A stretch of DNA of 32,000 nt, taken from contig NZ_BCZP01000021.1 of the NCBI RefSeq assembly GCF_001598795.1, positions 30,001-62,000 on the forward strand, read 5' to 3'. The notes beneath the pieces were generated by a model. It did not search any database. It worked only from the letters and a program-made list of their open reading frames with translations, and had not been told where the DNA came from. The DNA comes from Delftia acidovorans NBRC 14950. GTDB taxonomy: Bacteria; Pseudomonadota; Gammaproteobacteria; Burkholderiales; Burkholderiaceae_C. Both the position numbers and the translations under genes were made by a program. The number at the start of each line of letters is the position of its first letter. Position 1 is the first letter of the stretch. Below are positions 13,073-29,040 of this stretch, in pieces.

Positions 13073-14274
13073 TGCGGGTTTCTCCCGGCCGATTGCCTTG
13101 CGTTGCTGCGCACCCAGTTCCTTGCCTCCTGAGGCGAGAGGCCTGGGGGCATGGGGGCTGCAGGAAGGGGCGCCATTCCAGGACTTGATGGCAAGGGTTG
13201 CGCTGTGCCGGTGACGGGGTGCCGGGCCATCAGGCTGCGGCGCAGCGCAAGCGCGGCCTTGTCGCTGGGCGGGCATTCCTTGATGGCCTGGTCACCGATG
13301 AAGCGCAGCACTCCCTTAGGGTCCCGCGCGAGCATGGCCGGGATGTCTTCCGGTGCCTTCGCATACCAGAAGCCATAGGTGGCATAGCTTTTGACACCGC
13401 TGGAGTTCAATTTAGGCCCATAGGTGCATTGCAGGGTTTGATGGCCTTTGTTCCCGGTTTCAACCATCCAGTGATACACATCGCCTTCGGCCAGACCGTG
13501 GAGATCGACGGCGGAGAGGCGTTGCCGCTGTTGCTCGAACAGCCGTGCGCCACCATCGGGTGCAGTGGCGGCCTGCACATCCCTGGTGGCGGCTGCCTGC
13601 GCCTGCTGTTCCTGGCCCATGCCGAGCTGGATTTCCTGTCGGTCTCTGAGCCGTTTGTACGCCTGGTAGGTCGAATCGTTGGCCTGCAGTGCCTGTTGCA
13701 AGCGGTCGGGCTGAAGTGCCGCCATCGCCATCTGGCCGTCTCGCGCCGCTCCCAGCGAAGCCCTGATGCCTCTGACCCAGCTTTCAAAGGCCGCACGGCC
13801 ATCCGATGGGATGCCGTTGTCCAAAGCGCCCCCTGTCACGCGCTCCAGTCCCTTGACGATGGATATATTTCGTTCCGAAAAGCCTTCGTTGAGGTAGAGC
13901 GTGAGGAAGTAGAGATCCTTTTCCAGCAGCAGCTTGGCGAACTCCGCTTCCGCCTTGGCTCTGGTGCCTGGCGTCCGGGCTGTTTCAAGAAAGCCCTGAC
14001 GTGCTTTGGCGATCCTGCGGTTGAACTCGGACTTGTTCTTCGTAGCCTGTTGCTGGGCCGCCAGTGCATTGGTCAGATCCTCGCGGATCACGTCCCCGAT
14101 CGTGACCCTGCCCACCCAAGTGGTTTGCGCGTGACAGGCGTGCGCGAAAGCGATTGCGGCGGCGGCCAAAGCCACGGTTGCGCCGTGCTGCCACCGGCCG
14201 CCGGGAGCCGGCTCGCGTATTGGGGTGGCAACTCGCCAGGTGCCACCAGATTGAAAGAAGGAGTCAACCTGCAT
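13069..14274 (-). CDS. Hypothetical exported protein (about 401 aa from ATG 14274; the track starts at TTG 14391), no recognisable domain
   Basis: ATG at 14274 follows GAGAGGGG. A signal-peptide-like stretch ATVALAAAAIAFAHACHA-QT follows a long N-region. The N-half is helical and charged, and the C-half holds two Cys (LQCTYGPK, IKECPPSDK) and a Pro-rich tail. Codon usage is atypical for the window (many A/T-ending codons). The start codon is uncertain. Confidence 0.55.
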   Translation of the reverse strand: MQVDSFFQSGGTWRVATPIREPAPGGRWQHGATVALAAAAIAFAHACHAQTTWVGRVTIGDVIREDLTNALAAQQQATKNKSEFNRRIAKARQGFLETARTPGTRAKAEAEFAKLLLEKDLYFLTLYLNEGFSERNISIVKGLERVTGGALDNGIPSDGRAAFESWVRGIRASLGAARDGQMAMAALQPDRLQQALQANDSTYQAYKRLRDRQEIQLGMGQEQQAQAAATRDVQAATAPDGGARLFEQQRQRLSAVDLHGLAEGDVYHWMVETGNKGHQTLQCTYGPKLNSSGVKSYATYGFWYAKAPEDIPAMLARDPKGVLRFIGDQAIKECPPSDKAALALRRSLMARHPVTGTAQPLPSSPGMAPLPAAPMPPGLSPQEARNWVRSNARQSAGRNPQ

Positions 14275-14514
14275 GTAGCGCCCCTCTCTTGGGTGTGCTT
14301 TCGAAACGTAGCGGCTTGCAGTAGCCTGCCTCGCACCCCTTGGGTGTGCAGGCTCTGCCGGGATTTCAGCATCCGCCACGAGGACCGGCAATCCCGCGAA
14401 TGGTGTCTCCTTTTGTAAATGGTGGCCCTGGCAAGACCCTTCAACTCTGCGACAACGCAGCCATTGGGCAGGGAGTGGGTCGTGTGGTGCATTGATCCTG
14501 ATGGGCTGAAGACA

Positions 14515-17500: not shown

Positions 17501-17715
17501 GTCAGCGAATTGCCGCGCGTGGCGCTGGCTGTGGGCGTGCCCGAGGTGCCTGCGACCAGGCCCTTGGCACCGCGCGCCAGTGTTTCACCGTAGCCGGCCG
17601 CAAAGGCGGCCAGCCCACCGGCGGTGAGGCCACCGCGCAGCAGCAGGCGGCGGCGGGCGGCCTCGGCATCCAGGGAATCTTCGGGAGCTTGGGGGAGTTT
17701 CTTCTTGTCGGTCAT
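14515..17715 (-). CDS. ttrA: Molybdopterin (Mo-bisPGD) oxidoreductase catalytic subunit, tetrathionate reductase TtrA-like, 1066 aa
   Basis: Twin-arginine signal (EAARRRLLLRGGLTAGGLAAFAAG). N-terminal FeS motif C-x2-C-x3-C (SCLGCWTQC). The size matches TtrA (about 1020 aa) rather than PhsA/PsrA (about 760 aa). Gene order B-C-A as in Salmonella ttrBCA. Confidence 0.7.
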   Translation of the reverse strand: MTDKKKLPQAPEDSLDAEAARRRLLLRGGLTAGGLAAFAAGYGETLARGAKGLVAGTSGTPTASATRGNSLTPEFRIDPATGALATQPGQVVSPSSCLGCWTQCGVRVRVDTASNRILRVAGNPYHPLATTRPAAMDEPVREVYAKLGKELGLEGRATACARGSSMLEHQSAPHRVLTPLKRVGPRGSGRWQSISFEQLVQEVCEGGDLFGEGQVEGLRAIWDPRTPLDADNPEFGPRSNQLLVTDASNEGRAQLLRRFAGPSFGTVNVSNHGAYCGQSFRVGAAAALGDLPGMPHGKPDWSHASFGLFIGAAPAQSGNPFQRQGRELAEARSREDNRFRYVVVSPVLPTSSSLAAGSGNRWLAVKPASDLALVMALIRVILDEARHDTDFLAQPGPAAMQAAGEASWSNATHLLVNEHGHPRHGSFLRGADLGWALPAPAEDGKPAQDVFVVQRADGSLAPHTQAEPAQLMVRTRVAVPGLKAEGADQAPELSVCSSLAKLHEQASLKTLDEYAALCGVARGEIEALAREFTSHGKRAVADAHGGTMSGAGFYTAYAISMLNTLVGNLNVQGGLVLDAGPFGPFGPGPRYDFANFDGKVKPRGLALSRHRQPYEKSAEFQRKREGQPEGAKDYPAAQAPWYPAVGGLSSEMLASALAGYPYRAKAWINHMSNPVYGIAGFRNALVDDLKDPKKLPLIVSIDPFINETSALADFIVPDTVTYESWGISAPWADVVAKSSTVRWPVVQPAVARTAGGQPVNVESFLFAVAERLGLPGFGEAAIKDAQGQPHALRSAEDFFIHALANVAWAGGKPVPAASDDDIAITGVDRLVPALRQRLKDDEWRQVAMLLTRGGRFDRIEDAWKDGHTRKAHAPALQVWSEELARMRHAMTGERYSGCPTWYPARLADGSAMRTHFGEQQWPLLLTSYKSNLMSSMSIAVSRLRQVHPHNPVSLHRDDAERLGIANGDTVRIRTPGGAVTAVAMVRDGVMPGTVAIEHGYGHRELGAGRHSIDGKPMPVNAEHANGVNLNDLGFADPTRPGCKNVWVDWVSGAAVRQGLPARIEKT

Positions 17716-17793: not shown

Positions 17794-18837
17794 TCAGAGG
17801 GCGCGGGCCGCGGCCGAACGCGCGGGAAACAGCTCCAGCGCCCAGGTGGCCAGCGTCACAAGCGCGATGCACAGGCCGGCCACGCCCAGCATGCCCAGCA
17901 GGCCGTCGCCGCCCAGCGGCATGTGGTAGATGTACAGGCCCGCGCCGTACTTGGGCACGCCCTGCACGCCCATGAACAGCGCCCAGCGGAAGGCCCAGGC
18001 CGCGGCGGCCAGACCCAGCCCCAGGGCCAGCGTGTAGCGCGGGCAGACCATGCGCTGCCCACCCCGCACCAGGGCCCACAGCAGGGCGGCACCGGCCACG
18101 GCCGAGCCCAGCATGCTCAGGCGCCAGACCGGAAACTGCTGCCACAGCTGCAGCGCTGCCTGGAAGGAGCGGCCCTGGCCCAGCCAGCCGGCAACGGCCC
18201 AGACCGCCACCATGGCCAGCAGGCACAGCGCCAGCGCCAGGCCCAGCATGCGCAGCGCCTGCAGGGCGCCGGCATCGGGGCGGTGGCGGGCGGGCAGAAA
18301 GCGCGCCGTCACCAGCATGCAGCCCACCGTGGCCAGCCAGCCCGTGAGCGCCAGGTTCAGCGGCACCCACAGCGTGTTCCACAGCGGGCGCGAGCGCACG
18401 GCCATCAGCTCGGCGCCGGTATAGGCGGTGATGGTCAGCGCCGACACGGCCAGCAGCGGCGCAAGCCAGCGCAGCCACTGCGGCCGGCCCAGCCACCAGG
18501 CCAGCACGAAGGCCAGCGCCAGTCCCACGAAGGCCGGCAGCAGCAGCGCGCCCACCGACATCCACGACCACGGCGTGAAGTGCGCATAGAAATGCCAGAA
18601 GCGCGCAGGCTGGTGCAGGTCGGCCAGCAGCGACACGGGCGCGGCGATGGCGCTGACGGCCAGCACCAGCACGGCGGCCGGCAGCAGGCGCGCCATGGCG
18701 CTGGCACGCGGCGCCCAGGCGCAGGCGGCGGCCAGCAGGGCGGCGCCCGTGGCAATGCCGGCCAGGAAGAAGTACTGCACGGCCCAGGGCAGCCAGGCCG
18801 ATTCGTAGGCGGGGGTCAGGAGTTCGACGATGTGCAT
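17794..18837 (-). CDS. ttrC: NrfD/PsrC-family integral membrane quinol-interacting subunit, TtrC-like (347 aa)
   Basis: Track ORF 17794..18936. ATG at 18837 (MHIVELLTPAYESAWLPWAVQYFFLAGIA...) follows AAGGAG, 16 nt after the ttrB stop. About 9 hydrophobic helices. Confidence 0.7.
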   Translation of the reverse strand: MHIVELLTPAYESAWLPWAVQYFFLAGIATGAALLAAACAWAPRASAMARLLPAAVLVLAVSAIAAPVSLLADLHQPARFWHFYAHFTPWSWMSVGALLLPAFVGLALAFVLAWWLGRPQWLRWLAPLLAVSALTITAYTGAELMAVRSRPLWNTLWVPLNLALTGWLATVGCMLVTARFLPARHRPDAGALQALRMLGLALALCLLAMVAVWAVAGWLGQGRSFQAALQLWQQFPVWRLSMLGSAVAGAALLWALVRGGQRMVCPRYTLALGLGLAAAAWAFRWALFMGVQGVPKYGAGLYIYHMPLGGDGLLGMLGVAGLCIALVTLATWALELFPARSAAARAL

Positions 18838-18853: not shown

Positions 18854-19699
18854 TCAGTGGGAAGTGACCAGCCGCACGCTGGCCTGCCCGTCCACGCCGT
18901 CGACGAAGGCGTCGGGCAATCCCAGGTAGTACACATGCGGGTCCGTGCCCATGGCGGGCTTGAGCACCTTGAGGTCCTTGGCGTGCTCGCGCATGCGCTG
19001 GCGGATCTCGCTGCCCTCGTCGTTGAGGTCGCCGATCACGCGGGCGCCGCCCACGCAGCTTTCCACGCAGGCCGGCAGCAGGCCGGCTTCCAGGCGGTGC
19101 TCGCAGAAGGTGCACTTGTCGGCGGTCTGCGTCTCGTGGTTGATGAAGCGTGCGTCATAGGGGCAGGCCTGCACGCAGTAGCCGCAGCCCACGCAGCGCT
19201 CGTTGTCCACCAGCACGATGCCGTCGCTGCGCTGGAAGGTGGCCTGCACCGGGCAGACCGGCACGCAGGGCGGGTTGTCGCAGTGGTTGCACAGGCGCGG
19301 CAGGTTGAGCATGGCCGGCGGCAGGTCCTCGTTGCCCGCGTGCTGCACCTCGTACTGCAGCACCGTGGTGCGGAACTGGCCCAGCGGCGGCAGGTTCTCC
19401 ATGGAGCAGCTCACCGTGCAGGCCTGGCAGCCTATGCAGCGGCGCAGGTCCACCAGCATGCCGTAGCGCTTGCCGGCCTCGCCGGGACGGCGCGGCGGCT
19501 GGAAACCCGGGGTGCCGGGCGCGGCCGCCGCCACGGGCAGGGCCACGGCCGCCATGGCAGCGGCCAGCAGATCCTGCAGGAAGCCGCGCTTGCCTGCGGC
19601 GGGCTGCGCATGGGCGGCGGCGCGGGCGGGGATGTCCTGGGAGGAGGGCTTGCAGCTGCAGTCGTTGCAGCCGCTGCCGGCGCGGGATGTTTTTGGCAT
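18854..19699 (-). CDS. ttrB: 4Fe-4S ferredoxin-type electron-transfer subunit, TtrB-like
   Basis: Track ORF 18854..19750 starts at a TTG; the in-frame ATG is at 19699. Cys clusters CIGCQACTVSC, CNHCDNPPCVPVCP, CVGCGYCVQACP and CTFC...C. Tat-like motif GKRGFLQDLL with Lys-Arg instead of Arg-Arg, as described for Salmonella TtrB. Confidence 0.75.
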   Translation of the reverse strand: MPKTSRAGSGCNDCSCKPSSQDIPARAAAHAQPAAGKRGFLQDLLAAAMAAVALPVAAAAPGTPGFQPPRRPGEAGKRYGMLVDLRRCIGCQACTVSCSMENLPPLGQFRTTVLQYEVQHAGNEDLPPAMLNLPRLCNHCDNPPCVPVCPVQATFQRSDGIVLVDNERCVGCGYCVQACPYDARFINHETQTADKCTFCEHRLEAGLLPACVESCVGGARVIGDLNDEGSEIRQRMREHAKDLKVLKPAMGTDPHVYYLGLPDAFVDGVDGQASVRLVTSH

Positions 19700-19778: not shown

Positions 19779-19800
19779 TGAATTTAATATATGAAATTCA
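19779..19800. promoter_or_regulatory. Inverted repeat TGAATTT-N8-AAATTCA overlapping the predicted ttr -10 region
   Basis: Read directly: TGAATTT at 19779-19785 and AAATTCA at 19794-19800. Confidence 0.35.
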
Positions 19801-19827
19801 GGGCCTTGGTGGCTTGATGTGAGTCAA
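19786..19827 (-). promoter_or_regulatory. Class-II FNR/CRP-family-dependent promoter for ttrBCA: FNR box TTGACTCACATCAA plus a -10 TATATT
   Basis: Plus strand 19814-19827 reads TTGATGTGAGTCAA (9/10 match to TTGAT-N4-ATCAA). On the minus strand, TATATT (19791..19786) lies 30-35 nt downstream of the box centre. That puts it at -12..-7 if the box is centred at -41.5. Confidence 0.6.
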
Positions 19828-19904
19828 GCAATGGGCTTGTAAAGCGCCACCGACTGCCTGCCATGGACAGGCGCCCAAGGCAGTCCATAGCGTGTGGCGC
19901 AGGG

Positions 19905-19921
19905 ATTAAGACGGGGTTAAC
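19905..19921 (+). promoter_or_regulatory. PmrA-box-like direct repeat ATTAAG-ACGGG-GTTAAC
   Basis: Two TTAA-core hexamers with 11-bp periodicity in the ttrB/orf154 intergenic region, 112 nt upstream of the ATG at 20033. See the findings for recurrence at 22752 and 27068. Confidence 0.45.
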
Positions 19922-19930
19922 AGGGTGACT

Positions 19931-19947
19931 GCATTCCTCGGGAATGC
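19931..19947. promoter_or_regulatory. Inverted repeat GCATTCC-TCG-GGAATGC
   Basis: Perfect 7-bp arms read directly, 10 nt downstream of the TTAA repeat and upstream of orf154. Confidence 0.35.
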
Positions 19948-20032
19948 GGGGCGCGTATCGGAAATCACCCTCTTGTTTCCGTGCGCGGCCCCGGTCTACG
20001 CTGCTTGTGTTGCCACTGCCAAGGAGTTCTCC

Positions 20033-20497
20033 ATGAACCATGCCCTGAACAGCCTTGCTTCGGAACTGGACCTTGCCGCCGAAGCCGGCGAGCATCTGAG
20101 GCTGCAATTCACACAGGCCTGCGTGGACCGCATCGCGCACCTGCTGGAAGACCCGGACGTCATCCGCTGCGCACAAGGCCTTCGCCGCTACCTGGACGGC
20201 CAGATCGACAGGCAGGAGCTGGACCGCCTGGCCCGCGAGGCGGCCAGCCTGGCCAACCATCACCAGGGATCGCGCTCCCTCGACGGCTGCGGCCATGCCG
20301 CCGTGTCCGCCACCTATGCCACGGCCCATGGGCTGGCGGGCCGGGCGCTGCAGGCGGCCGACTATGCGGCCTATGCCATGGTCTATGGCGAGGGCGGCCA
20401 CGGCGCCGTCACGGACCGCGAATCGTTCGAGCCTGAATACCAATGGCAGGCCCGCTGCCTGGCCTCGCTGGCGCAGGCCGCTCAGCAGCGCACGTAG
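20033..20497 (+). CDS. Hypothetical all-alpha protein (154 aa); weak resemblance to Imm5-type putative immunity proteins
   Basis: Track ORF 19925..20497. ATG at 20033 lies 8 nt after AAGGAG. The Ala/His-rich helical repeats (HAAVSATYATAHGLAGRALQAADYAAYAMVYGEGG ... EYQWQARCL) resemble that family, but only from memory of its pattern. Confidence 0.6.
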   Translation: MNHALNSLASELDLAAEAGEHLRLQFTQACVDRIAHLLEDPDVIRCAQGLRRYLDGQIDRQELDRLAREAASLANHHQGSRSLDGCGHAAVSATYATAHGLAGRALQAADYAAYAMVYGEGGHGAVTDRESFEPEYQWQARCLASLAQAAQQRT

Positions 20498-20898
20498 CAC
20501 CAGCCCGACTGCTGCAGCAGGGCCAGTGACTCGATGCCGCCCTGCGGCAGCACGCGCATGCCGGCAGGCGCCTCGCGGCCCAGCTTCCTGAGCGTGTTCG
20601 GGCAGACCAGCGCATGGGCCAGGGCCTCTGCATCCAGATGCTGCGGCGTGCCCGGCGCGGCGTCCAGCAGCGCCTCGACGGCCGGGCCGTTGATGACGAT
20701 GCGGACCTCGGCACCGGGCCGGTCCTGGCGCAGGTTGGCCAGATTGCTGCGTGCACGGGCCAGGGCGCCGGGCGTGGGCGCATGCAGCACGATGCGCAGC
20801 GGCGGCGCATCCGGCCTGGCGGGGAACAGGTCGCTCCAGTCGCTGGAGGATGTGGAAGCGGCGGGAGAACGGCTTGTGCTCATGGTCGACCCCGTCAT
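20482..20898 (-). CDS. DsrE/DsrF-like family protein (COG1416-type sulfur-relay-like fold)
   Basis: LRIVLHAPTPGALARARSNLANL...EVRIVINGPAVEALL...VCPNTLRKLG...VLPQGGIESLALLQQSGWCYVR matches the COG1416/DsrE-like pattern, including the conserved Cys-x-NT. The ATG at 20898 overlaps the dsbG stop (ATGA). The N-terminus is Ser/Thr-rich with no obvious signal peptide. Confidence 0.7.
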   Translation of the reverse strand: MTGSTMSTSRSPAASTSSSDWSDLFPARPDAPPLRIVLHAPTPGALARARSNLANLRQDRPGAEVRIVINGPAVEALLDAAPGTPQHLDAEALAHALVCPNTLRKLGREAPAGMRVLPQGGIESLALLQQSGWCYVRC

Positions 20899-21701
20899 TT
20901 CCTGCCACGCGGCCCCATGACCTCTTCCAGCAGGCCCGGCGGCAGGCCGGTGCGCACCTGCACCACTCCCTTGTCATCCTTCCAGACCAGGGCCGGCGTG
21001 GCACGCAGTCCCCAGGTGGACATCAGCGAGGCATGGTTGGCCAGCACCTGCCGCGTGGCCTGCGGCACCGGGGCCAGCGGCGTGGCGCCCGCGCCCTCTG
21101 CGCTGGCGCGGCCGGCCTTGGCATAGGCGCGTGCGTGCTCGGCCAGGGCCTGCTCGGGCTGGCGCGCGGTCAGCAAGGCGGCGGCCTTGCCCTCGCTGCT
21201 GGGCTTGAGGATGCCGACCAGAATGTGGCGCAACTGCACCTGGCCACTCTCCACCCAGGGCCGGGCATCGTTCCACAGCTGGTTGCAATAGGGGCAGTTG
21301 GGGTCGGTGAACACATAGACCGTGCGCGGCGCGTCGGCGCGGCCGTCCGGTATGGACTGGGCGCGCTGCACATCGCCCCACAGTTGCTCGCTCATGGGCT
21401 TTTGCACGGCGGCTTGCAGGGCCTGGGCGTTCACGTCGCGGCCCTGGGCGTCGATCACCGTGCCCAGCACCCAGTGCTTGCCGTCAGGCATGCGGTAGAT
21501 GGGCACGGGCTGGCGGTCGCGGTAGGCGGCCCAGGCCTTGAGTCCGCCCACGGCCGGCAGCGGTCCCACCAGGGTCAGTCCCTGCTGGGCCAGGAAATCC
21601 TCCGATGGCAGCTCGGACGCCGCAGCCGGCAGGGCCAAGGCTGCCGACAGGGCCAGGGCTCCTGCCAGTGCAGGCAGGGGGAACAGGGGGGAAGCGCTCA
21701 T
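20895..21701 (-). CDS. dsbG: Periplasmic thiol:disulfide interchange protein DsbG/DsbC family
   Basis: C-terminal 268-270 aa of track ORF 20895..22475; the rest of that ORF is an out-of-frame artefact. Signal peptide MSASPLFPLPALAGALALSAALALPAAAS. Active site YVFTDPNCPYCNQLW. ATG 21701 overlaps the tlpA-like stop (ATGA); an alternative ATG is at 21707. Confidence 0.85.
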   Translation of the reverse strand: MSASPLFPLPALAGALALSAALALPAAASELPSEDFLAQQGLTLVGPLPAVGGLKAWAAYRDRQPVPIYRMPDGKHWVLGTVIDAQGRDVNAQALQAAVQKPMSEQLWGDVQRAQSIPDGRADAPRTVYVFTDPNCPYCNQLWNDARPWVESGQVQLRHILVGILKPSSEGKAAALLTARQPEQALAEHARAYAKAGRASAEGAGATPLAPVPQATRQVLANHASLMSTWGLRATPALVWKDDKGVVQVRTGLPPGLLEEVMGPRGRK

Positions 21702-22696
21702 GAACATTCCTTCAGATGCTGGGCCAGGCTGGCGCGCGACAGCTCGCCCATGCGCATGCCGCACAGCCGGCCGTCGGCGCCATAGAAATAGGTGGAAGGC
21801 AGGCCTCGCTGGCGCCAGTGCCGGCCGGCCTGCTGCTGCGGGTCGAACAGCACCTGGGCCAGCGGCAGCGGGGCTGCTGCCTGCTCGCGCCGCAGGTAGC
21901 CCATCACGGTCTCGGCAGACTCGCCCTGGTTGATCCAGATGAAGCGCACATCGGGCCGCTGCTGCTGGGCCTGGGCCAGCACCGGCATCTCGCGTCGGCA
22001 GGGCGGGCACCAGGTGGCCCAGAGGTTGATGACCATGGGCTTGCCATCGGCCTGCTGCAACTGCTGCAGCGAGACCGGCTGCGCCTGCCCGTTGACCAGG
22101 GTGAAGGCCGGCAGGGCCGGTGCATCTGCGGAGGGCAGCGCCTGCAGCAGGCTGCCCAGCACCAGCAGGGCCGCCCCCGCGCCCAGCGCCAGCCCTGTGG
22201 CGCGGCGCAGCACCGGGGAGCGGCGGCTGCGCCACAGCATGTACAGCAGCGCGGCCAGCAGGCCGGCCCACAGGTTCCATCCCCCGTCGCGGATATCGAT
22301 GATGCGGCCTGCGAAGGCCGGCATCCCGCTCCAATCCCAGGGGGCCGGCGCGACCTCGGTCCACCACTGCGCGACATAGGCCAGGCGCGCCGCCAGCAGG
22401 CCGGCCAGGGTGCTTTGCCAAAGCAGCGCATCCACGGCCTGGCCCGTGCGCCTTTCGTTCCTGCGCGCCAGCCACTGCGCCAGCAGCCAGGCCAGCATGG
22501 CCACCACCACGCCCATCGGCAGGACCAGCGGCCCCAGCGCCAGGCTGGCGGGCAGGTGCAGCCAGGTGCCCAGCGCCGATAGCGCTGACGGCCCGCCAGG
22601 CTCGGCCGGTCCGGCAAGAACAGGCGAAGGCGCCAGCAGCAGGCCAGCAAGCAAGGGCAGGAAGGACGAAAGAAGAGGGGATGACCGGAGATGCAT
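21698..22696 (-). CDS. TlpA-family thioredoxin-like disulfide reductase fused to an N-terminal multi-TM domain
   Basis: C-terminal Trx fold with the INLWATWCPPCRREMP active site. The N-terminal half has 4-5 hydrophobic helices. The track start at 22702 is a TTG; the in-frame ATG is at 22696. Confidence 0.8.
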   Translation of the reverse strand: MHLRSSPLLSSFLPLLAGLLLAPSPVLAGPAEPGGPSALSALGTWLHLPASLALGPLVLPMGVVVAMLAWLLAQWLARRNERRTGQAVDALLWQSTLAGLLAARLAYVAQWWTEVAPAPWDWSGMPAFAGRIIDIRDGGWNLWAGLLAALLYMLWRSRRSPVLRRATGLALGAGAALLVLGSLLQALPSADAPALPAFTLVNGQAQPVSLQQLQQADGKPMVINLWATWCPPCRREMPVLAQAQQQRPDVRFIWINQGESAETVMGYLRREQAAAPLPLAQVLFDPQQQAGRHWRQRGLPSTYFYGADGRLCGMRMGELSRASLAQHLKECS

Positions 22697-22751
22697 GGGC
22701 AAGGAGTTTCAGCCATGCAGGCTGACAGGTCGTGGATGCTGGCAGCGGGGA

Positions 22752-22768
22752 ATTAACGGGGGGTTAAC
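22752..22768 (-). promoter_or_regulatory. PmrA-box-like direct repeat (minus strand GTTAAC-CCCCC-GTTAAT; plus strand ATTAAC-GGGGG-GTTAAC)
   Basis: Two TTAA-core hexamers with 11-bp periodicity, 50-70 nt upstream of the tlpA-like start. Has the same NTTAAC-N5-NTTAAT polarity relative to its downstream operon as the site before tsdB. Confidence 0.45.
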
Positions 22769-22781
22769 GGCCTCATGGCCA

Positions 22782-23981
22782 TCAGGCTGCGACCGGTCCA
22801 TTTCGCCCAGCCAATCCCATGGCCGCAGACAGCAGCAAGGCCGCAGCGGCCAAGCCGCCAGACAGCCAGAGCGTGGCGTGCAGCCCCCAGCCATCGACCA
22901 GTTGGCCGCCCGCCCATGAGCCCAGCGCAATACCGATGTTGAAGACGCCAACGTACAGCGCCGTGGCAATTTCCACGGCGCGTGGCGCAGCCTGCATCAT
23001 CCAGGTCATCAGGCCCACCGATACGCCGCCGTAGGCCAGGCCCCAGACCAGCAGCACGGCGCCACCACCGGTTGGCGAGCCGCCCACGGACAGGAACAGC
23101 ACAGGCGCCAGCAGCAGGCCCAGGGCGATCGCCGCCAGACTCGGCGCCGTGCGGCGCGCCGCGATGATGCCCGCCAGGAAGTTGCCCGCAATGCCCGCGA
23201 TGCCGTAAGCCAGCAGCAGCGCGCTCATCCATTGCGCATCGAACCCCGACATCGTCAGCAGCAACGGGCGCACGAAGGTGAAGGACATGAAATGCCCGGC
23301 CACCAGCAGCAGCGTCAGTGCCAGCCCGGCCTGCAGCCTGCGGTTGGCCAGCTGATGGCTGAACTGGCGCAGGCTGGCCGAGCCTGTGGCAGGCAGGGCG
23401 GGGAGAACGGCCACGTGCAGCGCCAGCACCAGTGCGCTGAAGCCTGCCATGCCACCAAAGGCCCAGCGCCATCCCGCGAAATCGCCGATCAGCGCGCCCA
23501 GCGGCACGCCCAGCACCGAGGCTGCCGCCACGCCGCCAAAGATGATGGAGGTCGCCAGGCCCATCGACGCCTGGGGTACCAGCCGTGCCGCCAGCCCGCC
23601 CGCGATTGCCCAGATGCCGCCCATGCAAAAGCCCACCAGGACGCGCGCGGCCAGCAGCCAGATCAGCGACGGCGCCAGCGCCGAGGCCAGGTTGGCCAGC
23701 ACGAGCAGGGCCAGCAGTCCGCACAGGATGCGGCGCCGGTCCATGCCGCCCGCCGCCATCACCACCAGCGGCGCGAACAGCGCGGCCAGCAGCGCCGGCA
23801 GCGAGATCATCAGGCCGGCCCTGCCCATGGAGGTGCCCAGGCTGCCGGCAATCGATGTGAGCAGGCCGACCGGCAGCATTTCCGTGGTCACCACGGAAAA
23901 GGTGGCCAGGCCCACGGCGGACACGGCCAGCCACGGGCGGCGCGCGGCGGGTTCGGGCCGCGTGGAGGAAGACGAATTCAT
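22782..23981 (-). CDS. MFS transporter, DHA1-type 12-TMS exporter (sugar/purine efflux-like)
   Basis: 399 aa with 12 hydrophobic segments. N-terminus LAVSAVGLATFSVVTTEMLPVGLL. Divergent from a TetR regulator. Confidence 0.85.
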   Translation of the reverse strand: MNSSSSTRPEPAARRPWLAVSAVGLATFSVVTTEMLPVGLLTSIAGSLGTSMGRAGLMISLPALLAALFAPLVVMAAGGMDRRRILCGLLALLVLANLASALAPSLIWLLAARVLVGFCMGGIWAIAGGLAARLVPQASMGLATSIIFGGVAAASVLGVPLGALIGDFAGWRWAFGGMAGFSALVLALHVAVLPALPATGSASLRQFSHQLANRRLQAGLALTLLLVAGHFMSFTFVRPLLLTMSGFDAQWMSALLLAYGIAGIAGNFLAGIIAARRTAPSLAAIALGLLLAPVLFLSVGGSPTGGGAVLLVWGLAYGGVSVGLMTWMMQAAPRAVEIATALYVGVFNIGIALGSWAGGQLVDGWGLHATLWLSGGLAAAALLLSAAMGLAGRNGPVAA

Positions 23982-24042
23982 GGTCCAGATCCCTTCAAAC
24001 AGGTGGGGGGTGTTGCGCCGCCGTCGCGGGACAGAGAAAATA

Positions 24043-24111
24043 CATACGCTGCGTATGAATAGAATCCTATATACATACGTGGCGTATGTAAATAATCATG
24101 CACGCCGTATG
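24043..24111. promoter_or_regulatory. Three tandem palindromic operators CATACG-N3-CGTATG (the third is imperfect) in the MFS/TetR divergent region
   Basis: CATACGCTGCGTATG at 24043-24057, CATACGTGGCGTATG at 24074-24088, and CATGCACGCCGTATG at 24097-24111. The last one abuts the TetR RBS AAGGAG. Confidence 0.65.
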
Positions 24112-24125
24112 TAAGGAGATTGGCC

Positions 24126-24713
24126 ATGGTTCGCCGCACCCGCGCCGAGATGGAAGAAACCCGCGCCACGCTGCTGGCCACGGCCCGCAAGGCCTTTGGA
24201 GAGCAGGGCTACGCCGATGCCTCCATGGACGATCTCACCGCGCAGGTGGGCCTGACGCGGGGCGCGCTGTACCACCATTTCGGCGACAAGCAGGGCCTGC
24301 TGGCGGCCGTGGTCGAGCAGATCGATGCCGAGGTGGATGAACGCCTGAAGGCCATCACCGCCCATGCCCAGGATCCCTGGCAGGGCTTTCGCAGTCGCTG
24401 CCAGGCCTACCTGGAAATGGCGCTGGAGCCTGAAATCCAGCGCATCGTGCTGCGCGATGCGCGCGCGGCTTTGGGCGGTGCGCTGCCGCAATCGCAGCGC
24501 CACTGCATTGCGTCCATGCAGGCACTGATTGCGGACCTCATGGCGCAGGGCATCGTGGCCCGGGCCGATCCGCAGGCGTTGGCATCGCTGATCTACGGCA
24601 GCCTGGCCGAAGCGGCTTTCTGGATTGCCGAGGGCGAGGACGCCGACCTGCGGCTGGAGCGCGGCGCGGCGGCGCTGGACCTGCTGCTGGGCGGGCTGCT
24701 GGCCCGGCCCTGA
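24126..24713 (+). CDS. TetR/AcrR family transcriptional regulator
   Basis: The track start at 24120 is a TTG directly after the RBS. ATG at 24126 lies 8 nt after AAGGAG. HTH: RATLLATARKAFGEQGYADASMDDLTAQVGLTRGALYHHFGDKQGL. Confidence 0.85.
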   Translation: MVRRTRAEMEETRATLLATARKAFGEQGYADASMDDLTAQVGLTRGALYHHFGDKQGLLAAVVEQIDAEVDERLKAITAHAQDPWQGFRSRCQAYLEMALEPEIQRIVLRDARAALGGALPQSQRHCIASMQALIADLMAQGIVARADPQALASLIYGSLAEAAFWIAEGEDADLRLERGAAALDLLLGGLLARP

Positions 24714-24863
24714 GCGGGCCACCTGGCCGCATTCTTGTGCACCCGCCTGCGAAATTCGGCACGCCGCCGCGCCAGCGCGGCAAATCTGCGATGCTCAGTC
24801 GCTTTTCGTTCCCGACTTGAATACAGACGGCGGGGCCTGGCGCCAGGCCCTGCGGACAACAAC

Positions 24864-25526
24864 ATGCATGTTCTCTTGGTGGAAGACAACGCGCTGGTGG
24901 CCAGCGGCGTGCGAGCCGGCCTGCAGCTGCAGGGCTTTGGCGTGGATACCGTGGCCTCGGCCGGGCAGGCGGATGCGGCCATCCGTTCCTCGCATTTCGA
25001 TGCCTGCGTGCTGGACCTGGGCCTGCCGGACGAGGATGGCCTCTCGCTGCTGGCGCGCTGGCGCGGCCAGGGCCTGCAGGTGCCCGTGCTGGTGCTGACG
25101 GCGCGCGATGCCGTGTCCCAGCGCATCGAAGGCCTGCAGACCGGCGCCGACGATTACCTGGTCAAGCCCTTTGACCTGCACGAACTGGCGGCGCGCCTGC
25201 ATGCGCTGCTGCGCCGCGCGGCCGGCCGCAGCGTGGACTGGATCGAGCTGGGCGAGGTGCGCATCAATCCCGCTGCAGGCCATATCCAGCGCCAGGGCCG
25301 CACGGTGGAGCTGTCGCGCCGCGAGTGGTCGCTGCTGCGCGCGCTGCTGCAGTCGCCGGGCCGCATTCTCAGCACCGAGCAACTGCGCGACAGCCTCTAC
25401 GGCTACAGCCAGGACGTGGAGAGCAATGCCGTCAACGTTCATGTGCACCATCTGCGCCGCAAGCTGGGCCATGAACTGGTGGAGACGGTGCGCGGCGAGG
25501 GCTATCGCCTGGGCCTGCACCCATGA
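24864..25526 (+). CDS. OmpR-family response regulator, PmrA(BasR)/QseB subgroup
   Basis: Track ORF 24735..25526; ATG at 24864 gives MHVLLVEDNALV... Receiver motifs DLGLPDEDG, VLVLTARD and GADDYLVKPF. The wHTH SNAVNVHVHHLRRKLG is almost identical to E. coli QseB SNAVEVHVHHLRRKLG. Confidence 0.85.
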   Translation: MHVLLVEDNALVASGVRAGLQLQGFGVDTVASAGQADAAIRSSHFDACVLDLGLPDEDGLSLLARWRGQGLQVPVLVLTARDAVSQRIEGLQTGADDYLVKPFDLHELAARLHALLRRAAGRSVDWIELGEVRINPAAGHIQRQGRTVELSRREWSLLRALLQSPGRILSTEQLRDSLYGYSQDVESNAVNVHVHHLRRKLGHELVETVRGEGYRLGLHP

Positions 25527-27073
25527 TGCGCAGCCTGCGCGTGCGCCTGCTGGCATGTCTGTGCCTGGCGCTGTGCACGCTGTGGGGCGGGGTGGCGGCC
25601 TGGATGTTCTCCGACATGCGCAACGAACTGCGCACCGTGCTGGATGACCGGCTGATCGCCTCGGCGCGCATGGTGGCCGGCATCGTCCACCAGTTCCGGC
25701 CTGCCCGGGAGCTGCCGCAGGACTGGAGCCCCATGCTCAACGTGATCGCGCGCGACGGCGTGGCCTGCGAGGTCAGCCTGGTGCGCGGCGAGGTCCAGCC
25801 CGTGCGCCCCGAATCGGCCCTGCCGCAGGTGCTGGCCAAGACCGAGGGCAGTCCCGTGTTCCCGCAGAGCATGCCGCTGGGCTTCTCGACCATCATCAAG
25901 GGCGGCAAGCCCTGGCGCACCTATGTGCTGGAGGACCACGGCGTGCGCATCGCCACGGCCGACCGCATCGATGTGCGCGAGGGCCTGATCCACGGCTTTG
26001 CCTACACCATCGTCCTGCCCTTCGTGCTGGCGCTGCTGGCCAGCATGGGGCTGATGTGGTGGGCCGTGACCCAGGGCCTCAGGCCGCTGGAGGCCCTGCG
26101 GCGCGAACTGGCGCGCCGCCCGCCCGGCGACGACTCGCCCGTGGCCCAGGGCCTGCAGACGCGCGAGCTGGCGCCGCTGGTGGGCACGCTCAACCAGCTG
26201 CTGCACCGCGTGCGCGCCGCCATCGACCGCGAGCGCCGCTGGAGCGACGACGCCGCCCATGAGTTGCGCACGCCGCTCACCGCCATCAAGACCCATGTGC
26301 AGGTGGCGCAGATGGCGCTGGCGGCGCCCGGCATGCCTGCCGGCCTTCTGGCCGCGCCGCCCGGCTCCATGGCCCGCGATTCGCTGGCCCAGGCGGGCGA
26401 GGGCGTGGAGCACCTGCAGCACACGCTGGAGCAGTTGCTGCTGCTGGCGCGGCTGGAGCAGCATGAACCGGGTGCCGCCAATGCGCTGGCCTGCGGCGAT
26501 GCGCCTGCCGATGCGCTGCAGGCGCTGGACAAGGCCTGGCAACTGGCGGTGAATGCCGTGAGCGCCGGAGCACCGGCGCCGGCGCAGCGCCAATGGTTGG
26601 ACACGCACCAGCAGCCCGGCAACGGCGCCTGGCCGCTGGCCATCTCCGAGCCCCTGCTGGTCTCGGCCCTGCGCAATCTGCTGGAAAACGCCCTGCGCCA
26701 TGCGCCGCAGCATGCCGTGGAACTGGCGGTGCGGCCCATTGGCGCCATGCCGGGCAAGACACAGCAGCCGGGCTCAGGCTATGTGGAGTTCACCGTGGCC
26801 GACCATGGCCCGGGGCTCAGCGCCGAGGAATGCGAAGAGGCCACGCGCCGCTTTTGGCGCAAGCGTCCCCAGGAGCATGGCAGCGGCCTGGGCCTGCCCA
26901 TCGTGCAGCGCATCGCCGAATGCGCAGGCGGCTGCCTGCTGCTGCAGCCGCGCAGCCTGTGGCGGCCCGAGGAAGGCCAGGCCAGCGGCCTGGTCGCGCG
27001 CCTGTACCTGCCGCTGGCGGACGGCCCGGGCCCGCAGGCCCCGGCCGCCGGCCCATTAGCGCCGGCCCATTAA
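25523..27073 (+). CDS. Sensor histidine kinase (QseC/BasS-like)
   Basis: ATGA overlap with the regulator stop. Two TM helices flank a periplasmic domain of about 140 aa. H-box AAHELRTPLTAI, N-box LRNLLENALRHAP, G-boxes DHGPGL and GSGLGLPIV. Confidence 0.85.
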   Translation: MMRSLRVRLLACLCLALCTLWGGVAAWMFSDMRNELRTVLDDRLIASARMVAGIVHQFRPARELPQDWSPMLNVIARDGVACEVSLVRGEVQPVRPESALPQVLAKTEGSPVFPQSMPLGFSTIIKGGKPWRTYVLEDHGVRIATADRIDVREGLIHGFAYTIVLPFVLALLASMGLMWWAVTQGLRPLEALRRELARRPPGDDSPVAQGLQTRELAPLVGTLNQLLHRVRAAIDRERRWSDDAAHELRTPLTAIKTHVQVAQMALAAPGMPAGLLAAPPGSMARDSLAQAGEGVEHLQHTLEQLLLLARLEQHEPGAANALACGDAPADALQALDKAWQLAVNAVSAGAPAPAQRQWLDTHQQPGNGAWPLAISEPLLVSALRNLLENALRHAPQHAVELAVRPIGAMPGKTQQPGSGYVEFTVADHGPGLSAEECEEATRRFWRKRPQEHGSGLGLPIVQRIAECAGGCLLLQPRSLWRPEEGQASGLVARLYLPLADGPGPQAPAAGPLAPAH

Positions 27074-27085
27074 CGCCGGCTTAAT
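27068..27085 (+). promoter_or_regulatory. PmrA-box-like direct repeat (C)ATTAAC-GCCGG-CTTAAT overlapping the kinase stop codon, upstream of tsdB
   Basis: TTAA cores at 27070-27073 and 27081-27084 (11-bp periodicity). CTTAAT is a perfect YTTAAK half-site. A degenerate third copy, CATTAG, sits 14 nt upstream (27054-27059). About 160 nt before the tsdB start. Confidence 0.45.
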
Positions 27086-27241
27086 CTCGGTTCCGTATCG
27101 TGCGGGCCTGGCTGGCCAGCCCTGCGGGCATTGCGCCTTGCGGGGCGGCGGCCGGTATCCCTATTCGATCCTGTCCGCCGCAGCCGTGCGCTCCTGGGTG
27201 CGTGGCGCGGACGCATGGCAGGGCAAATGCCTCTTCCCACG

Positions 27242-27991
27242 ATGATCCGCATGAACAAACAGACCCTGTCCCGGTCGAGCATCGCCATCGGCATCTGCAT
27301 GCTGATGGGCAGCGCCTGGGCGCAAGACGCCGCGCCCAAGGCAGCAGCGCCCACAGCTGCGGTGCAAGGCAGTGCAGCAGCCGGCCAGAAAATCGCCCAG
27401 TCGGGCACGCCCCAGGGTGCGGCGGCATGTGCCACCTGCCACGGCGCCAAGGGCGAGGGCATGGCGGGCTTTCCGGCCCTGGCCGGCCAGCACGCCGGCT
27501 ATCTGGCGCGCCAGCTCCAGCACCTGGCCGACGGCAGCCGCCAGGCCCCCGTGATGGCGCCCATGGCCAAGGCCCTGTCGGCCCAGGACCGCGCCGATGT
27601 GGCCGCCTATTACGCCAGCCTGCCGCTGCCCATCCAGCCCGTGCGCGGCCCGCTGCCCAAGGGCAAGGACGATGACGGCGCCTGGCTGGTCGAGCGCGGA
27701 CGCTGGGCGGACGGCATTCCCGCCTGTGCCCAATGCCACGGCCCGGGCGGCGTGGGCGTGGGCGCCGATTTCCCGGCCATCGGCCACCTGACGGCCGACT
27801 ACATGCAAAGCCAGGTCGCCGCCTGGAACAAGGGCCAGCGCGAGGCTGGCCCGCTGGGCCTCATGGGCAAGGTCGCGCAAAAGCTCACGCCCGCGGACAT
27901 CCAGGCCGTGGCGGCCTACTACGCCCGCCTGCATGGCGCCAGCCCCAGCACCAGCACCGCAGCCACGGCCTCCGCGCCAGCCAAACCCTGA
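27242..27991 (+). CDS. tsdB: Dihaem cytochrome c (c4-type), TsdB-like electron acceptor of thiosulfate dehydrogenase
   Basis: Track ORF 27131..27991; start at ATG 27242 or 27251 (MIRMNKQTLSRSSIAIGICMLMGSAWA-QD signal peptide). Two CxxCH motifs (CATCHG, CAQCHG), each followed by a Met-containing distal segment. Immediately upstream of the tsdA-like gene. Confidence 0.7.
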   Translation: MIRMNKQTLSRSSIAIGICMLMGSAWAQDAAPKAAAPTAAVQGSAAAGQKIAQSGTPQGAAACATCHGAKGEGMAGFPALAGQHAGYLARQLQHLADGSRQAPVMAPMAKALSAQDRADVAAYYASLPLPIQPVRGPLPKGKDDDGAWLVERGRWADGIPACAQCHGPGGVGVGADFPAIGHLTADYMQSQVAAWNKGQREAGPLGLMGKVAQKLTPADIQAVAAYYARLHGASPSTSTAATASAPAKP

Positions 27992-29040
27992 TGGACCGGG
28001 AGCCGAACATGTCCGACACACAACCCACCCGCGCCTCCAAAAACTCCAATACCGCCGAGTACGCCGTCGTCGCCTGCCTGTTCGCCGGCCTGGCGGGCGC
28101 GCTCGCCTATGGCATGTACATCAGCCAGCCAGACATGCCACCTGCGCCGGCCCGCGTGGGCGCGGTCCCCGCTGCGGCTGCCACCGCAGCCAGGGCCGAT
28201 GCAAATGCGAATGCCCAGGTCACCTCCCAGGCCGTGAAAGTGGCTGCCGACGGCGGCGCCTTCACGCCCCCCGGCGCCCGCGACATCCCCGACACGCCCA
28301 TGGGCGAGTGGATTCGGCGTGGCGAGGCCATCTTCCTGCGCACGCCGGCCAACGCAGTGGGCTTTTCGGGCAACACCCTCAACTGCGTGAACTGCCACCT
28401 GGACGCAGGCCGGCTCAAGGGCGCCGCACCCATGTGGGGTGCCTACCCGCTGTACCCTGCTTACCGCAAGAAGACCAACCACGTGGACACCTTCGCCGAG
28501 CGCGTGCGCGGCTGCTTCATGTACAGCATGAACGGCAAGGCCCCCGACGACGGCCACGACATCCTCGTGGCGCTGGAGGCCTATGCCTACTGGATGGCAC
28601 AGAAGGCGCCCACGGGCGAGAAGCTGCCCGGTGCGGGCTTCACCAAGGTGGGCAAGGCCGCGCAGGAGCCCAGCTTCGAGCGCGGCGCCAAGGTCTACGA
28701 GGCCAAGTGCGCGCTGTGCCACGGCCCTCAGGGCCAGGGCCAGGAAGTAGGCGGTGTGACCGTGTTCCCGCCGCTGTGGGGCAAGCAGTCCTACAACTGG
28801 GGCGCGGGCACGCACGAAGTGGACAAGGCCGCCAGCTTCATCAAGGGCAACATGCCCTACGGCAACCCCACGCTGGATGACCAGGAGGCCTGGGACGTGG
28901 CCACCTACATCAACAGCATGGAGCGCCCCCAGGACCCGCGCTTCACCGGCAACGTGGCCGACACGCGCAAGCAGTTCCACGACAACCCGTACTCGCTGTA
29001 CGGCACCGAGGTCAACGGGCGGCTGCTCAAGGGTCTTTGA
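27991..29040 (+). CDS. tsdA: Thiosulfate dehydrogenase TsdA-like dihaem cytochrome c
   Basis: Track ORF 27733..29040; in-frame ATG at 27991 (1-nt overlap with the tsdB TGA) or at 28009. Hydrophobic N-terminal anchor. Haem motifs CVNCH and CALCH. A Cys in ERVRGCFMYSMNG sits where TsdA/SoxA-type proteins carry the haem-ligating active-site Cys. YPAYRKK, FPPLWG..S.NWGAG and RPQDPRF are as I recall for the TsdA family. Confidence 0.7.
   Translation: MDREPNMSDTQPTRASKNSNTAEYAVVACLFAGLAGALAYGMYISQPDMPPAPARVGAVPAAAATAARADANANAQVTSQAVKVAADGGAFTPPGARDIPDTPMGEWIRRGEAIFLRTPANAVGFSGNTLNCVNCHLDAGRLKGAAPMWGAYPLYPAYRKKTNHVDTFAERVRGCFMYSMNGKAPDDGHDILVALEAYAYWMAQKAPTGEKLPGAGFTKVGKAAQEPSFERGAKVYEAKCALCHGPQGQGQEVGGVTVFPPLWGKQSYNWGAGTHEVDKAASFIKGNMPYGNPTLDDQEAWDVATYINSMERPQDPRFTGNVADTRKQFHDNPYSLYGTEVNGRLLKGL

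Follow-up and report, generated by a model that had tools for sequence, protein, structure and literature searches.

Which regulator reads a rare direct repeat that recurs beside sulfur and thiol genes of Delftia acidovorans NBRC 14950, and which genes does the repeat serve? The question arose in a 32,000-nucleotide stretch of this genome (contig NZ_BCZP01000021.1, positions 30,001 to 62,000; hereafter the window), where three copies of TTAA-N7-TTAA were found close to the genes of a two-component system. We propose that the three repeats serve the adjacent DsbR-type response regulator as operator/promoter elements, through which it would activate ttrBCA, dsbE-dsbG-dsrE-like and tsdBA. The probability of this reading was put at about 0.82.

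The three boxes and their predicted promoters

The repeats are real and highly non-random. The G+C content of the window is ~69%, and the tetranucleotide TTAA occurs exactly 10 times in its 32 kb (7720, 19758, 19784, 19906, 19917, 22753, 22764, 27070, 27081, and 29193). Six of the ten copies pair up as three TTAA-N7-TTAA, which agreed with a preliminary description of this DNA that had counted about ten copies, six of them in three 11-bp-spaced pairs. The pattern TTAANNNNNNNTTAA matched exactly at three places (19906-19920, 22753-22767, and 27070-27084) and never in 100 dinucleotide-preserving shuffles of the window, and the rarity claimed for it was thus borne out by computation. When up to one core mismatch was allowed, the window contained no extra site outside the AT-rich ttrB promoter region. 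The full 17-mers, all exact motif matches, are the following:

19905-19921, minus strand: DsbR-type box 1, GTTAAC-CCCGT-CTTAAT, facing ttrBCA
22752-22768, minus strand: DsbR-type box 2, GTTAAC-CCCCC-GTTAAT, facing dsbE-dsbG-dsrE-like
27069-27085, plus strand: DsbR-type box 3, ATTAAC-GCCGG-CTTAAT, facing tsdBA

All three 17-mers are non-coding, save that box 3 spans the stop codon of the kinase gene. Their locations are as described earlier, apart from the start of the third, which had been placed one base too far left at 27068. Box 1 sits between the ttrB start (19699, minus strand) and the orf154 start (20033, plus strand), 112 bp from the orf154 ATG. Box 2 sits between the stop of a major facilitator superfamily (MFS) transporter gene (22782) and the start of the dsbE/tlpA-like gene (22696, minus strand), 56 bp before dsbE. 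Box 3 overlaps the kinase stop TAA (27071-27073) and lies 166 bp before the tsdB ATG at 27251. A 14-bp tandem duplication at 27047-27074, CGCCGGCCCATTA(G/A), makes up the last kinase codons and provides the first half-site of this box. The oriented 16-mer TTAAC-N6-TTAAT matched without mismatch at site 1 (minus), site 2 (minus), and site 3 (plus). Read toward ttrBCA, dsbE-dsbG-dsrE-like, and tsdBA, respectively, the sites are all NTTAAC-N5-NTTAAT; this had been noticed for the last two and holds for all three.

Exactly 10 bp past each box there was a -10-like hexamer of the form nAnnnT, from which the transcription starts were inferred by sequence:

19889-19894, minus strand: CACGCT, 10 bp past box 1; predicted DsbR-dependent transcript start near 19882
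22736-22741, minus strand: CAGCAT, 10 bp past box 2; predicted transcription start near 22729
27096-27101, plus strand: TATCGT, 10 bp past box 3; predicted transcription start near 27108

In a curated set of 16 oriented sites, taken from the window itself and from seven loci related to it, the A at hexamer position 2 and the T at position 6 were found at 16/16 sites, and the consensus of the boxes was NTTAAY-N5-CTTAAT, i.e., D-TTAA-Y-N5-C-TTAA-T. The same phasing was observed in further metagenome loci at tsdB (8/8 sites), dsbE (5/5), and dsbD (23/23). At ttrB, 8 of 11 listed sites showed it, the remaining three being upstream pairs of tandem half-site arrays; the promoter-proximal pair fits in the arrays of loci L105 and L107, while the proximal pair of L133 was not printed. 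As an internal control, only 2 of 36 boxes fitted nAnnnT when read toward the regulator gene. PhoB- and PmrA-type activators, which replace the -35 element, have sites that end 10 bp before the -10, and the geometry of the boxes points to an OmpR/PhoB-type activator of this kind. A palindrome, ATTAA-N7-TTAAT with a symmetric dimer, was rejected because TTAAT recurs without exception as the proximal half-site, at an invariant distance from the -10, whereas the distal half-site is often asymmetric (GTTAA, TTTAA). Upstream of ttrB in L010 (9081-9119), L105 (2811-2839), L107 (3959-3987), and L133 (4030-4069), three to four TTAA half-sites follow in strict 11-bp phase, in place of a single pair.

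Site 1 had been regarded as a divergent element of ttr and orf154. Its orientation and its -10 hexamer both face ttrB, and the box was kept in loci without orf154; on this orientation and phasing, site 1 is assigned to ttrBCA rather than to orf154. A second putative promoter was present between the box and ttrB:

19814-19827, minus strand: FNR/ANR-type box TTGACTCACATCAA, in the ttrB upstream region
19786-19791, minus strand: -10 hexamer TATATT of the putative promoter, whose first base lies 29.5 bp from the centre of the FNR box, a class II FNR spacing; predicted transcription start near 19779

The motif TTGAY-N4-RTCAA was found upstream of ttrB in 12/12 loci examined, with a -10 ~22 bp further on. 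The distance between the centres of the FNR box and the DsbR box was 75.5-77.5 bp in ten loci, 92.5 bp in Delftia, and 130.5 bp in L082. An AT-rich conserved stretch separates the two boxes in L105, L107-L109, L111, L118, and L133, and an IHF-like WATCAANNNNTTR lies between them in several loci. The fixed DsbR-to-FNR spacing and the IHF-like site recall NarL-IHF-FNR promoters. The -10 phasing suggests that the DsbR box at ttrB may act as an upstream promoter of its own. In Salmonella, ttrBCA follows a logic of Fnr plus TtrR; here, ttrBCA would integrate anaerobiosis with the two-component signal.

Family of the two-component system and conservation of the boxes

The two-component system and the element ahead of it are encoded as follows:

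24782-24795, plus strand: conserved element AAATCTGCGATGCT with extended -10-like TGcGATGCT, upstream of the regulator gene; putative function
24864-25526, plus strand: DsbR-like OmpR-family response regulator (Pfam, NCBIfam, structure-sequence alignment)
25523-27073, plus strand: DsbS-like sensor kinase with periplasmic Cys82 (RDGVACEVS) and H-box His246 (Pfam, alignments)

The regulator aligns gap-free with Klebsiella pneumoniae PmrA (4s04/4s05). In the PmrA-DNA structure, T187, N188, V192, and H195 read TAA bases, and the window regulator carries S187, N188, V192, and H195 at these positions (T187 replaced by S, the other three identical). TTAA half-site specificity is therefore expected, and this supports a regulator that works like PmrA on DNA without belonging to PmrA. 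The regulator scored 229.8 bits against NCBIfam PmrA (cut-off 330) and 228.7 bits against QseB (cut-off 345); the kinase scored 130 bits against PmrB (cut-off 314) and 135 bits against QseC (cut-off 475). Both proteins fell under these NCBIfam equivalog cut-offs, and orthology with PmrA or QseB was rejected. The earlier assignment to a PmrA/QseB type was thus right about the DNA-reading head and wrong if taken as orthology, the family being DsbRS. Membership of TtrSR was ruled out by the output domain of the regulator (Trans_reg_C, OmpR-type) and the N-terminus of the kinase (2CSK_N/QseC-like).

In Pseudomonas aeruginosa, the footprints of DsbR share TAA-N7-TTAAT and chromatin immunoprecipitation sequencing (ChIP-seq) gave TTAA-N7-TTAA; DsbR activates dsbDEG, and dsbRS-dsb pairs with the motif are widespread (Yu et al., bioRxiv 10.1101/2020.08.17.255257). 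The sequence comparison places the window system in the DsbRS family, as a cognate of PA2479/PA2480 within the PmrA/QseB/BqsR clade of OmpR-family regulators. The regulator was 64% identical to the Pseudomonas dsbDEG-linked regulator. The closest loci of other taxa (among them a beta-proteobacterial metagenome-assembled genome, Hydrogenophilales, P. putida, Halomonas, Vreelandella, and Salinisphaeraceae) had dsbE- and dsbG-like genes beside the system and regulators 57-66% identical to that of the window. Two Pseudomonas loci (L005 and L008) showed dsbG, dsbE, and dsbD on one side and regulator-kinase on the other, diverging from ATTAACCGAGTGTTAAC and CATAATCCTGGCTTAAT, which is the arrangement of the DsbRS paper. 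A search by the sensor domain alone also retrieved Pseudomonas-type dsbDEG loci. The window shares the linkage, with dsbE-like and dsbG genes near the system in an operon without dsbD, and box 2 is a DsbRS-type site present in the sequence of the linked dsb promoter.

The kinase, 97% identical to a Delftia acidovorans protein, carries Cys82 within RDGVACEVS; this motif was invariant across 20 homologues, and Cys82 lines up with its counterpart in the P. putida kinase encoded beside dsbDEG. Its H-box, DAAHELRTP, contains His246, and the +4 position is Thr250 and not Ser, as in P. putida. In DsbS, the phospho-acceptor is His235 and the phosphatase residue is Ser239, which is conserved 'to a lesser extent' (Yu et al.).

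A full-length kinase search of genome contigs, whose pattern was a generic H-box peptide, yielded mostly distant QseC-like kinases, the ten closest being L001-L010. Metagenome contigs searched with only the sensor domain as query yielded 80 loci. Across these 80 loci, 84 of 96 exact boxes lay within 300 bp upstream of the regulator, dsbD, dsbE, ttrB, or tsdB; such zones made up 4.4% of the sequence, and the box density was 1.73 per kb within them versus 0.011 per kb elsewhere. Every metagenome locus with ttrB had a box within 320 bp upstream of it (13/13), and ttrB boxes were also present in L082, L088/89, L090, and L095; the listed loci further included L105, L107-L111, L118, and L133. A box preceded tsdB in 13 of 18 metagenome loci, as well as in L081 and L092-94. 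The five unboxed tsdB genes were that of L119, which lies inside the dsb operon, and four distant homologues (36-43% identical). The box lay between the kinase stop and tsdB in L081, L092-94, L102, L104, L105, L109, L121, and L133, and boxes before dsbE or dsbD were found in L081, L082, L092-94, L119, L128-L174, and the Pseudomonas loci L005/L008. The box was thus present at all ttrB genes with readable upstream DNA and at tsdB wherever this gene is operon-initial, and the upstream conservation at orthologous operons on which the first proposal depended was found. The gene arrangements are listed below, with arrows showing the direction of transcription, RR the response regulator, and HK the kinase:

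C. testosteroni and three other Comamonas-type loci (L081, L092-L094): dsrE-like<-dsbG<-dsbE<-(box)->RR-HK-(box)->tsdBA
L082 (kinase 67% identical): ttrACB<-(box) dsrE-like<-dsbG<-dsbE<-(box)->RR-HK
Melaminivora and Alicycliphilus (L088-L090): (box)->ttrBCA-RR-HK-dsbE
L095: (box)->ttrBCA, 2 kb from the system
Metagenome loci L105, L109, L110, and L133: (box)->ttrBCA-RR-HK-(box)->tsdBA-dsrE-like-dsbE, all on one strand
Metagenome loci L107, L108, L111, and L118: (box)->ttrBCA-RR-HK
Six Delftia contigs (L096-L101): all three boxes kept

The gene order shifts between divergent, tandem, and single-string arrangements, and the box stays with the ttr, tsd, and dsb genes. The boxes therefore travel with the system and these genes, and a small local regulon, as first suggested, is well supported by comparative genomics; tsdBA, the thiol-redox operon, and ttr would belong to it, and orf154 would not. 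Kinases of ttr- and tsd-linked loci were 41-100% identical to that of the window, whereas those of Pseudomonas-type loci, which had dsbDEG only, were 34-39% identical; the linkage to ttr and tsd therefore tracks a sub-family. The sensor domains of the two groups were 35-38% identical. The element AAATCTGCGATGCT was conserved in L081, L082, and L092-L094, where it is 13 bp from the box. In L119 (860-3150), tsdB apparently lies in one box-driven operon with dsbE, dsbG, and a DsrE-like gene, an arrangement that ties thiosulfate oxidation directly to thiol-redox genes. The ~50% identical kinases of C. terrigena and Acidovorax (L084 and L086) were set aside as paralogues in unrelated contexts; neither locus had an exact box, and L084 had a one-mismatch site before the regulator gene only.

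Mechanism, signal, and competing explanations

We propose that the phosphorylated regulator binds NTTAAY-N5-CTTAAT as a head-to-tail dimer at about -39 to -23, where it would substitute for the -35 element and recruit sigma-70 RNA polymerase to the weak -10 located 10 bp downstream. The units activated would be ttrBCA (tetrathionate reductase), dsbE-dsbG-dsrE-like, and tsdBA (thiosulfate dehydrogenase), of which the second would provide periplasmic thiol reduction and repair together with a sulfur-carrier-like protein. At ttrBCA, the extra class II promoter of FNR type downstream of the box would add the anaerobiosis input. The DsbS-type kinase is predicted to sense its signal via the single conserved periplasmic Cys82.

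Copper is the only demonstrated ligand of the family, in Pseudomonas only (Yu et al.). Given the link of this sub-family to ttr and tsd genes, the physiological cue in the window system is proposed to be oxidation of periplasmic thiols, with a contribution from tetrathionate or from the thiosulfate/tetrathionate couple. As a specific thiol oxidant, tetrathionate would inflict on periplasmic cysteines the sort of damage that DsbE and DsbG presumably repair. Cells that make tetrathionate with TsdBA or respire it with TtrBCA would need such repair, which would explain the co-regulation whatever the signal. Since the system is embedded in ttr operons that also carry FNR sites, tetrathionate itself is a plausible inducer, a suggestion that we make tentatively. 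It is less likely than not that the DsbS-type kinases of this sub-family are sensors of tetrathionate or, more broadly, of periplasmic thiol oxidants. If they were, the lone Cys82 might be S-thiosulfonated or oxidised by tetrathionate, as copper binds in Pseudomonas, and its modification might block the phosphatase and turn on tetrathionate respiration by ttrBCA (with FNR), the interconversion of thiosulfate and tetrathionate by tsdBA, and DsbE/DsbG repair of oxidised periplasmic cysteines.

A strictly copper-specific sensor would explain the locus differently: ttr and tsd would be induced in copper stress, e.g., to manage thiosulfate, which reduces and complexes copper, and tetrathionate would not be sensed. 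The sensor domain of DsbS binds copper and its periplasmic Cys82 is essential for sensing in P. aeruginosa (Yu et al.), and the cysteine and its surrounding motif are conserved in the window kinase. On the other side, the substrate is normally the inducer of a respiratory reductase operon under FNR co-control; Alicycliphilus, Melaminivora, and L105-L133 carry the system inside the ttr operon itself; and the sensor domain of ttr- or tsd-linked kinases is far from the dsbDEG-only type (identities as given above). None of these points is decisive, and copper specificity keeps a substantial share of the probability, short of an even chance.

The other alternatives concern the boxes themselves. They might be bound by another PmrA/QseB/BqsR-type paralogue encoded elsewhere, with the adjacency of the system being incidental: PmrA (XTTAAY-N5-XTTAAY) and BqsR (TTAAG-N6-TTAAG) read the same core and spacing, and Comamonadaceae hold the related kinases of L084 and L086. 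However, these two loci have no exact boxes, and the boxes follow the regulator-kinase pair through over 20 loci of differing arrangement and are ~150-fold enriched beside the system and its neighbours, which makes a foreign regulator very improbable. It is also very improbable that site 1 regulates orf154 or the divergent pair. The self-complementary TTAA core and the short distance to the orf154 ATG would allow this, but the NTTAAY-N5-CTTAAT orientation and the hexamer face ttrB, the ttrB box is retained without orf154 in L082, L088, L090, L095, and L105-L133, and orf154 matches no family. Transposons are known to target TTAA, and box 2 has an insertion hotspot 19 bp away; chance or remnants of a TTAA-targeting mobile element can nevertheless hardly be credited, given the absence of matches in the shuffles, the fixed 11-bp spacing, orientation, and -10 phasing, the conservation of the boxes across genera, and the lack of terminal repeats or transposase genes.

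Several observations weigh against activation of the three units by the adjacent regulator. PmrA, BqsR, and QseB-like paralogues likewise use sites of the TTAA-N7-TTAA type, and cross-regulation is possible. Several of the -10-like hexamers are poor (CACGCT, CAGCAT). At ttrB, the fixed spacing and the IHF-like site indicate that the DsbR box may be a distal co-activator of the FNR promoter. L001 and L006 have tsd or ttr genes beside the system and no box at the promoters of these genes. L007 has no separate tsdB box, and neither L007 nor L010 has a box at the dsbE promoter; in L007, tsdBA lies directly 3' of the kinase gene, with which it probably shares a transcript. The regulator operon of the window is without an adjacent box, an MFS/TetR cassette intervening, and because of this the autoregulation reported for Pseudomonas may not apply here or may have been lost in Delftia.

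The TtrSR system controls tetrathionate respiration in enteric and marine gamma-proteobacteria. To our knowledge, no regulator has been assigned to ttr and tsd in Comamonadaceae and other beta-proteobacteria, where these genes are common. We predict that in Comamonadaceae and their relatives an OmpR-family system with a cysteine-based sensor takes the place of TtrSR and governs the turnover of tetrathionate and thiosulfate. The boxes would provide a concrete regulator assignment for beta-proteobacterial ttr and tsd, with predicted promoters and start sites. They also call the copper specificity of the DsbRS family into question, for a large branch of it appears wired to tetrathionate/thiosulfate enzymes and a DsrE-fold protein. 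If tetrathionate were sensed, the two-component systems that respond to it would gain a third class, one without kinship to TtrSR; DsbRS would be recast as a thiol-stress sensor that is not copper-specific, and a new compact biosensor part for a gut-inflammation marker would become available.

The genes of the locus and comparison with known systems

Genes were called from Pfam and NCBIfam profile matches, and the remaining features of the locus are the following:

14515-17715, minus strand: ttrA, molybdopterin catalytic subunit (NCBIfam TtrA, 1354 bits, full length, cut-off 1750; runner-up family PhsA, 145 bits)
17794-18837, minus strand: ttrC, NrfD-type membrane subunit (NCBIfam TtrC, 198 bits, cut-off 314; Pfam NrfD); likely start ATG at 18837, open reading frame (ORF) extending to 18936
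18854-19699, minus strand: ttrB, Fe-S subunit (NCBIfam TtrB, 391 bits, cut-off 416; Pfam Fer4_11)
20033-20497, plus strand: orf154, no Pfam or NCBIfam family match
20482-20883, minus strand: orf133, 133-aa DsrE/YchN-fold protein, third gene of the dsb operon (alignment, profile and fold comparison)
20895-21701, minus strand: dsbG (NCBIfam DsbG, 319.5 bits, cut-off 124 passed)
21698-22696, minus strand: dsbE-like, N-terminal membrane (LGT-like) domain plus TlpA/redoxin thioredoxin domain (Pfam)
22782-23981, minus strand: MFS transporter (Pfam)
24126-24713, plus strand: TetR regulator (Pfam)
22788-24721: strain-variable MFS + TetR cassette, absent from Delftia contigs L100 and L101
27251-27991, plus strand: tsdB, dihaem cytochrome c (Pfam Cytochrom_C, two stretches)
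27991-29040, plus strand: tsdA, thiosulfate dehydrogenase/tetrathionate reductase cytochrome (Pfam SoxA-TsdA_cyt-c and Cytochrom_C; start approximate; synteny with L081)

TtrA, TtrB, and TtrC were by far the best families for the first three genes, all under their equivalog cut-offs; by best family and the gene order BCA, ttrBCA is a putative tetrathionate reductase operon. TsdB was 75% identical to its neighbour in C. testosteroni. The product of orf133 had no Pfam or NCBIfam match and was resolved by profile and fold comparison only. Its profile matched 1l1s (E = 2e-5) and 2pd2, and a single-sequence AF2 model (pLDDT 77.5) matched 2pd2 (ST0148), 1jx7 (YchN), and 2hy5 (DsrEFH) in Foldseek. 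With this fold and the invariant Cys94 of its CPNT motif in the alignment, the earlier label 'dsrE-like' was upheld. The dsbE-like architecture matches that of P. putida dsbE in L005 (6572-7456). The Comamonas dsbE-like gene (L081, 7732-9135) has DsbD_N fused before the LGT-like membrane domain, in an operon without the DsbD transmembrane gene.

The orf154 frame is coding-like (GC3 0.81), overlaps the DsrE-like gene by 16 bp at its 3' end, and was confined to Delftia-type loci among the loci examined. Upstream of it, at 19919-19974, there was a nested inverted repeat, AACAGGGTGA...TCACCCTCTT, with GCATTCC-TCG-GGAATGC inside. The MFS/TetR cassette lies outside the regulon. Its place is taken by ~570 bp of low-GC DNA in two Delftia metagenome contigs (L100 and L101), and a third (L096) has ~490 bp extra at the same junction, which is 19 bp from box 2, so that the cassette splits this box from the regulator promoter. 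The divergent intergenic region of the MFS and TetR genes (24038-24114) contains three copies of a ~23-nt unit, ATACATACG-N3-CGTATGnAA, each an inverted repeat and a probable TetR operator. At about 12800-14500, a lower-GC stretch (0.62) separates an outer-membrane efflux gene from the end of ttrA, and its long ORFs had no Pfam match.

The system resembles PmrA/PmrB (BasRS) of Enterobacteriaceae in its gap-free regulator alignment, its conserved base contacts, and a site like that of PmrA, XTTAAY-N5-XTTAAY, which replaces the -35 element. It differs in the regulator score (230 versus 330 bits) and in a kinase sensor domain that is not PmrB-like, and no lipid A modification genes were present at the locus. 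With BqsRS/CarRS of P. aeruginosa it shares a tandem site, TTAAG-N6-TTAAG in BqsR, which overlaps the -35 element, and the BqsRS operon is autoregulated; however, BqsS senses Fe(II) via an RExxE motif, and the BqsRS regulon comprises cation stress and polyamines. TtrSR of Salmonella, Shewanella, and Vibrio is likewise a two-component system acting with FNR over ttrBCA, but TtrR is of NarL/LuxR type and TtrS has a periplasmic solute-binding-like sensor, neither being homologous to the window system. No TtrSR-type genes were adjacent to ttrBCA in the window, L082, L088, or L095.

In Halomonas, a synteny of a 'qseB'-like regulator, kinase, tsdB, tsdA, dsbG, and a thioredoxin gene was attributed to quorum sensing (PMC9237845). 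This neighbourhood corresponds to L007, and the report gives no binding site and no link to DsbRS. The present assignment would correct annotations and published inference that name the system QseBC and tie it to quorum sensing. Apart from this synteny, searches of the literature on DsbRS, copper, tetrathionate, dsbG, and tsdA/tsdB found no link of DsbRS to ttr or tsd, and no description of the boxes ahead of ttrBCA and tsdBA turned up in them.

The closest known system is DsbRS of P. aeruginosa, with which the window shares an OmpR-family regulator, a QseC-like kinase with the conserved periplasmic Cys82, the TAA-N7-TTAAT/TTAA-N7-TTAA site, and the linked dsbE/dsbG thiol-redox operon, whose activation was shown in Pseudomonas. 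The DsbRS study was reportedly published later in Science Bulletin (2022). The intergenic targets that it names were dsbD-dsbR, dsbB-pa0539, and opdT-pa2506, and the other named targets were pa4803, hxcU, hxcP, pa2911, pstS, pa3398, and dnr; the Pseudomonas ChIP targets include neither ttrBCA nor tsdBA, and the word tetrathionate is absent from the paper (Yu et al.). Because the DsbRS site and the control of dsb are published, the pairing of box 2 with the regulator motif is already known. The new role that the preliminary description had claimed for this regulator class therefore stands for ttrBCA and tsdBA and not for the thiol-redox operon. The differences from DsbRS are that the window dsb operon is without dsbD and has gained a DsrE-fold gene, that in this strain the MFS/TetR cassette parts the dsb operon from the two-component genes, and that, here and in many beta-proteobacterial relatives, the box precedes ttrBCA and tsdBA too. 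The predicted extension of DsbR-type control to these two operons is strongly supported by the comparison of loci, and together with the FNR-coupled promoter it appears to be new.

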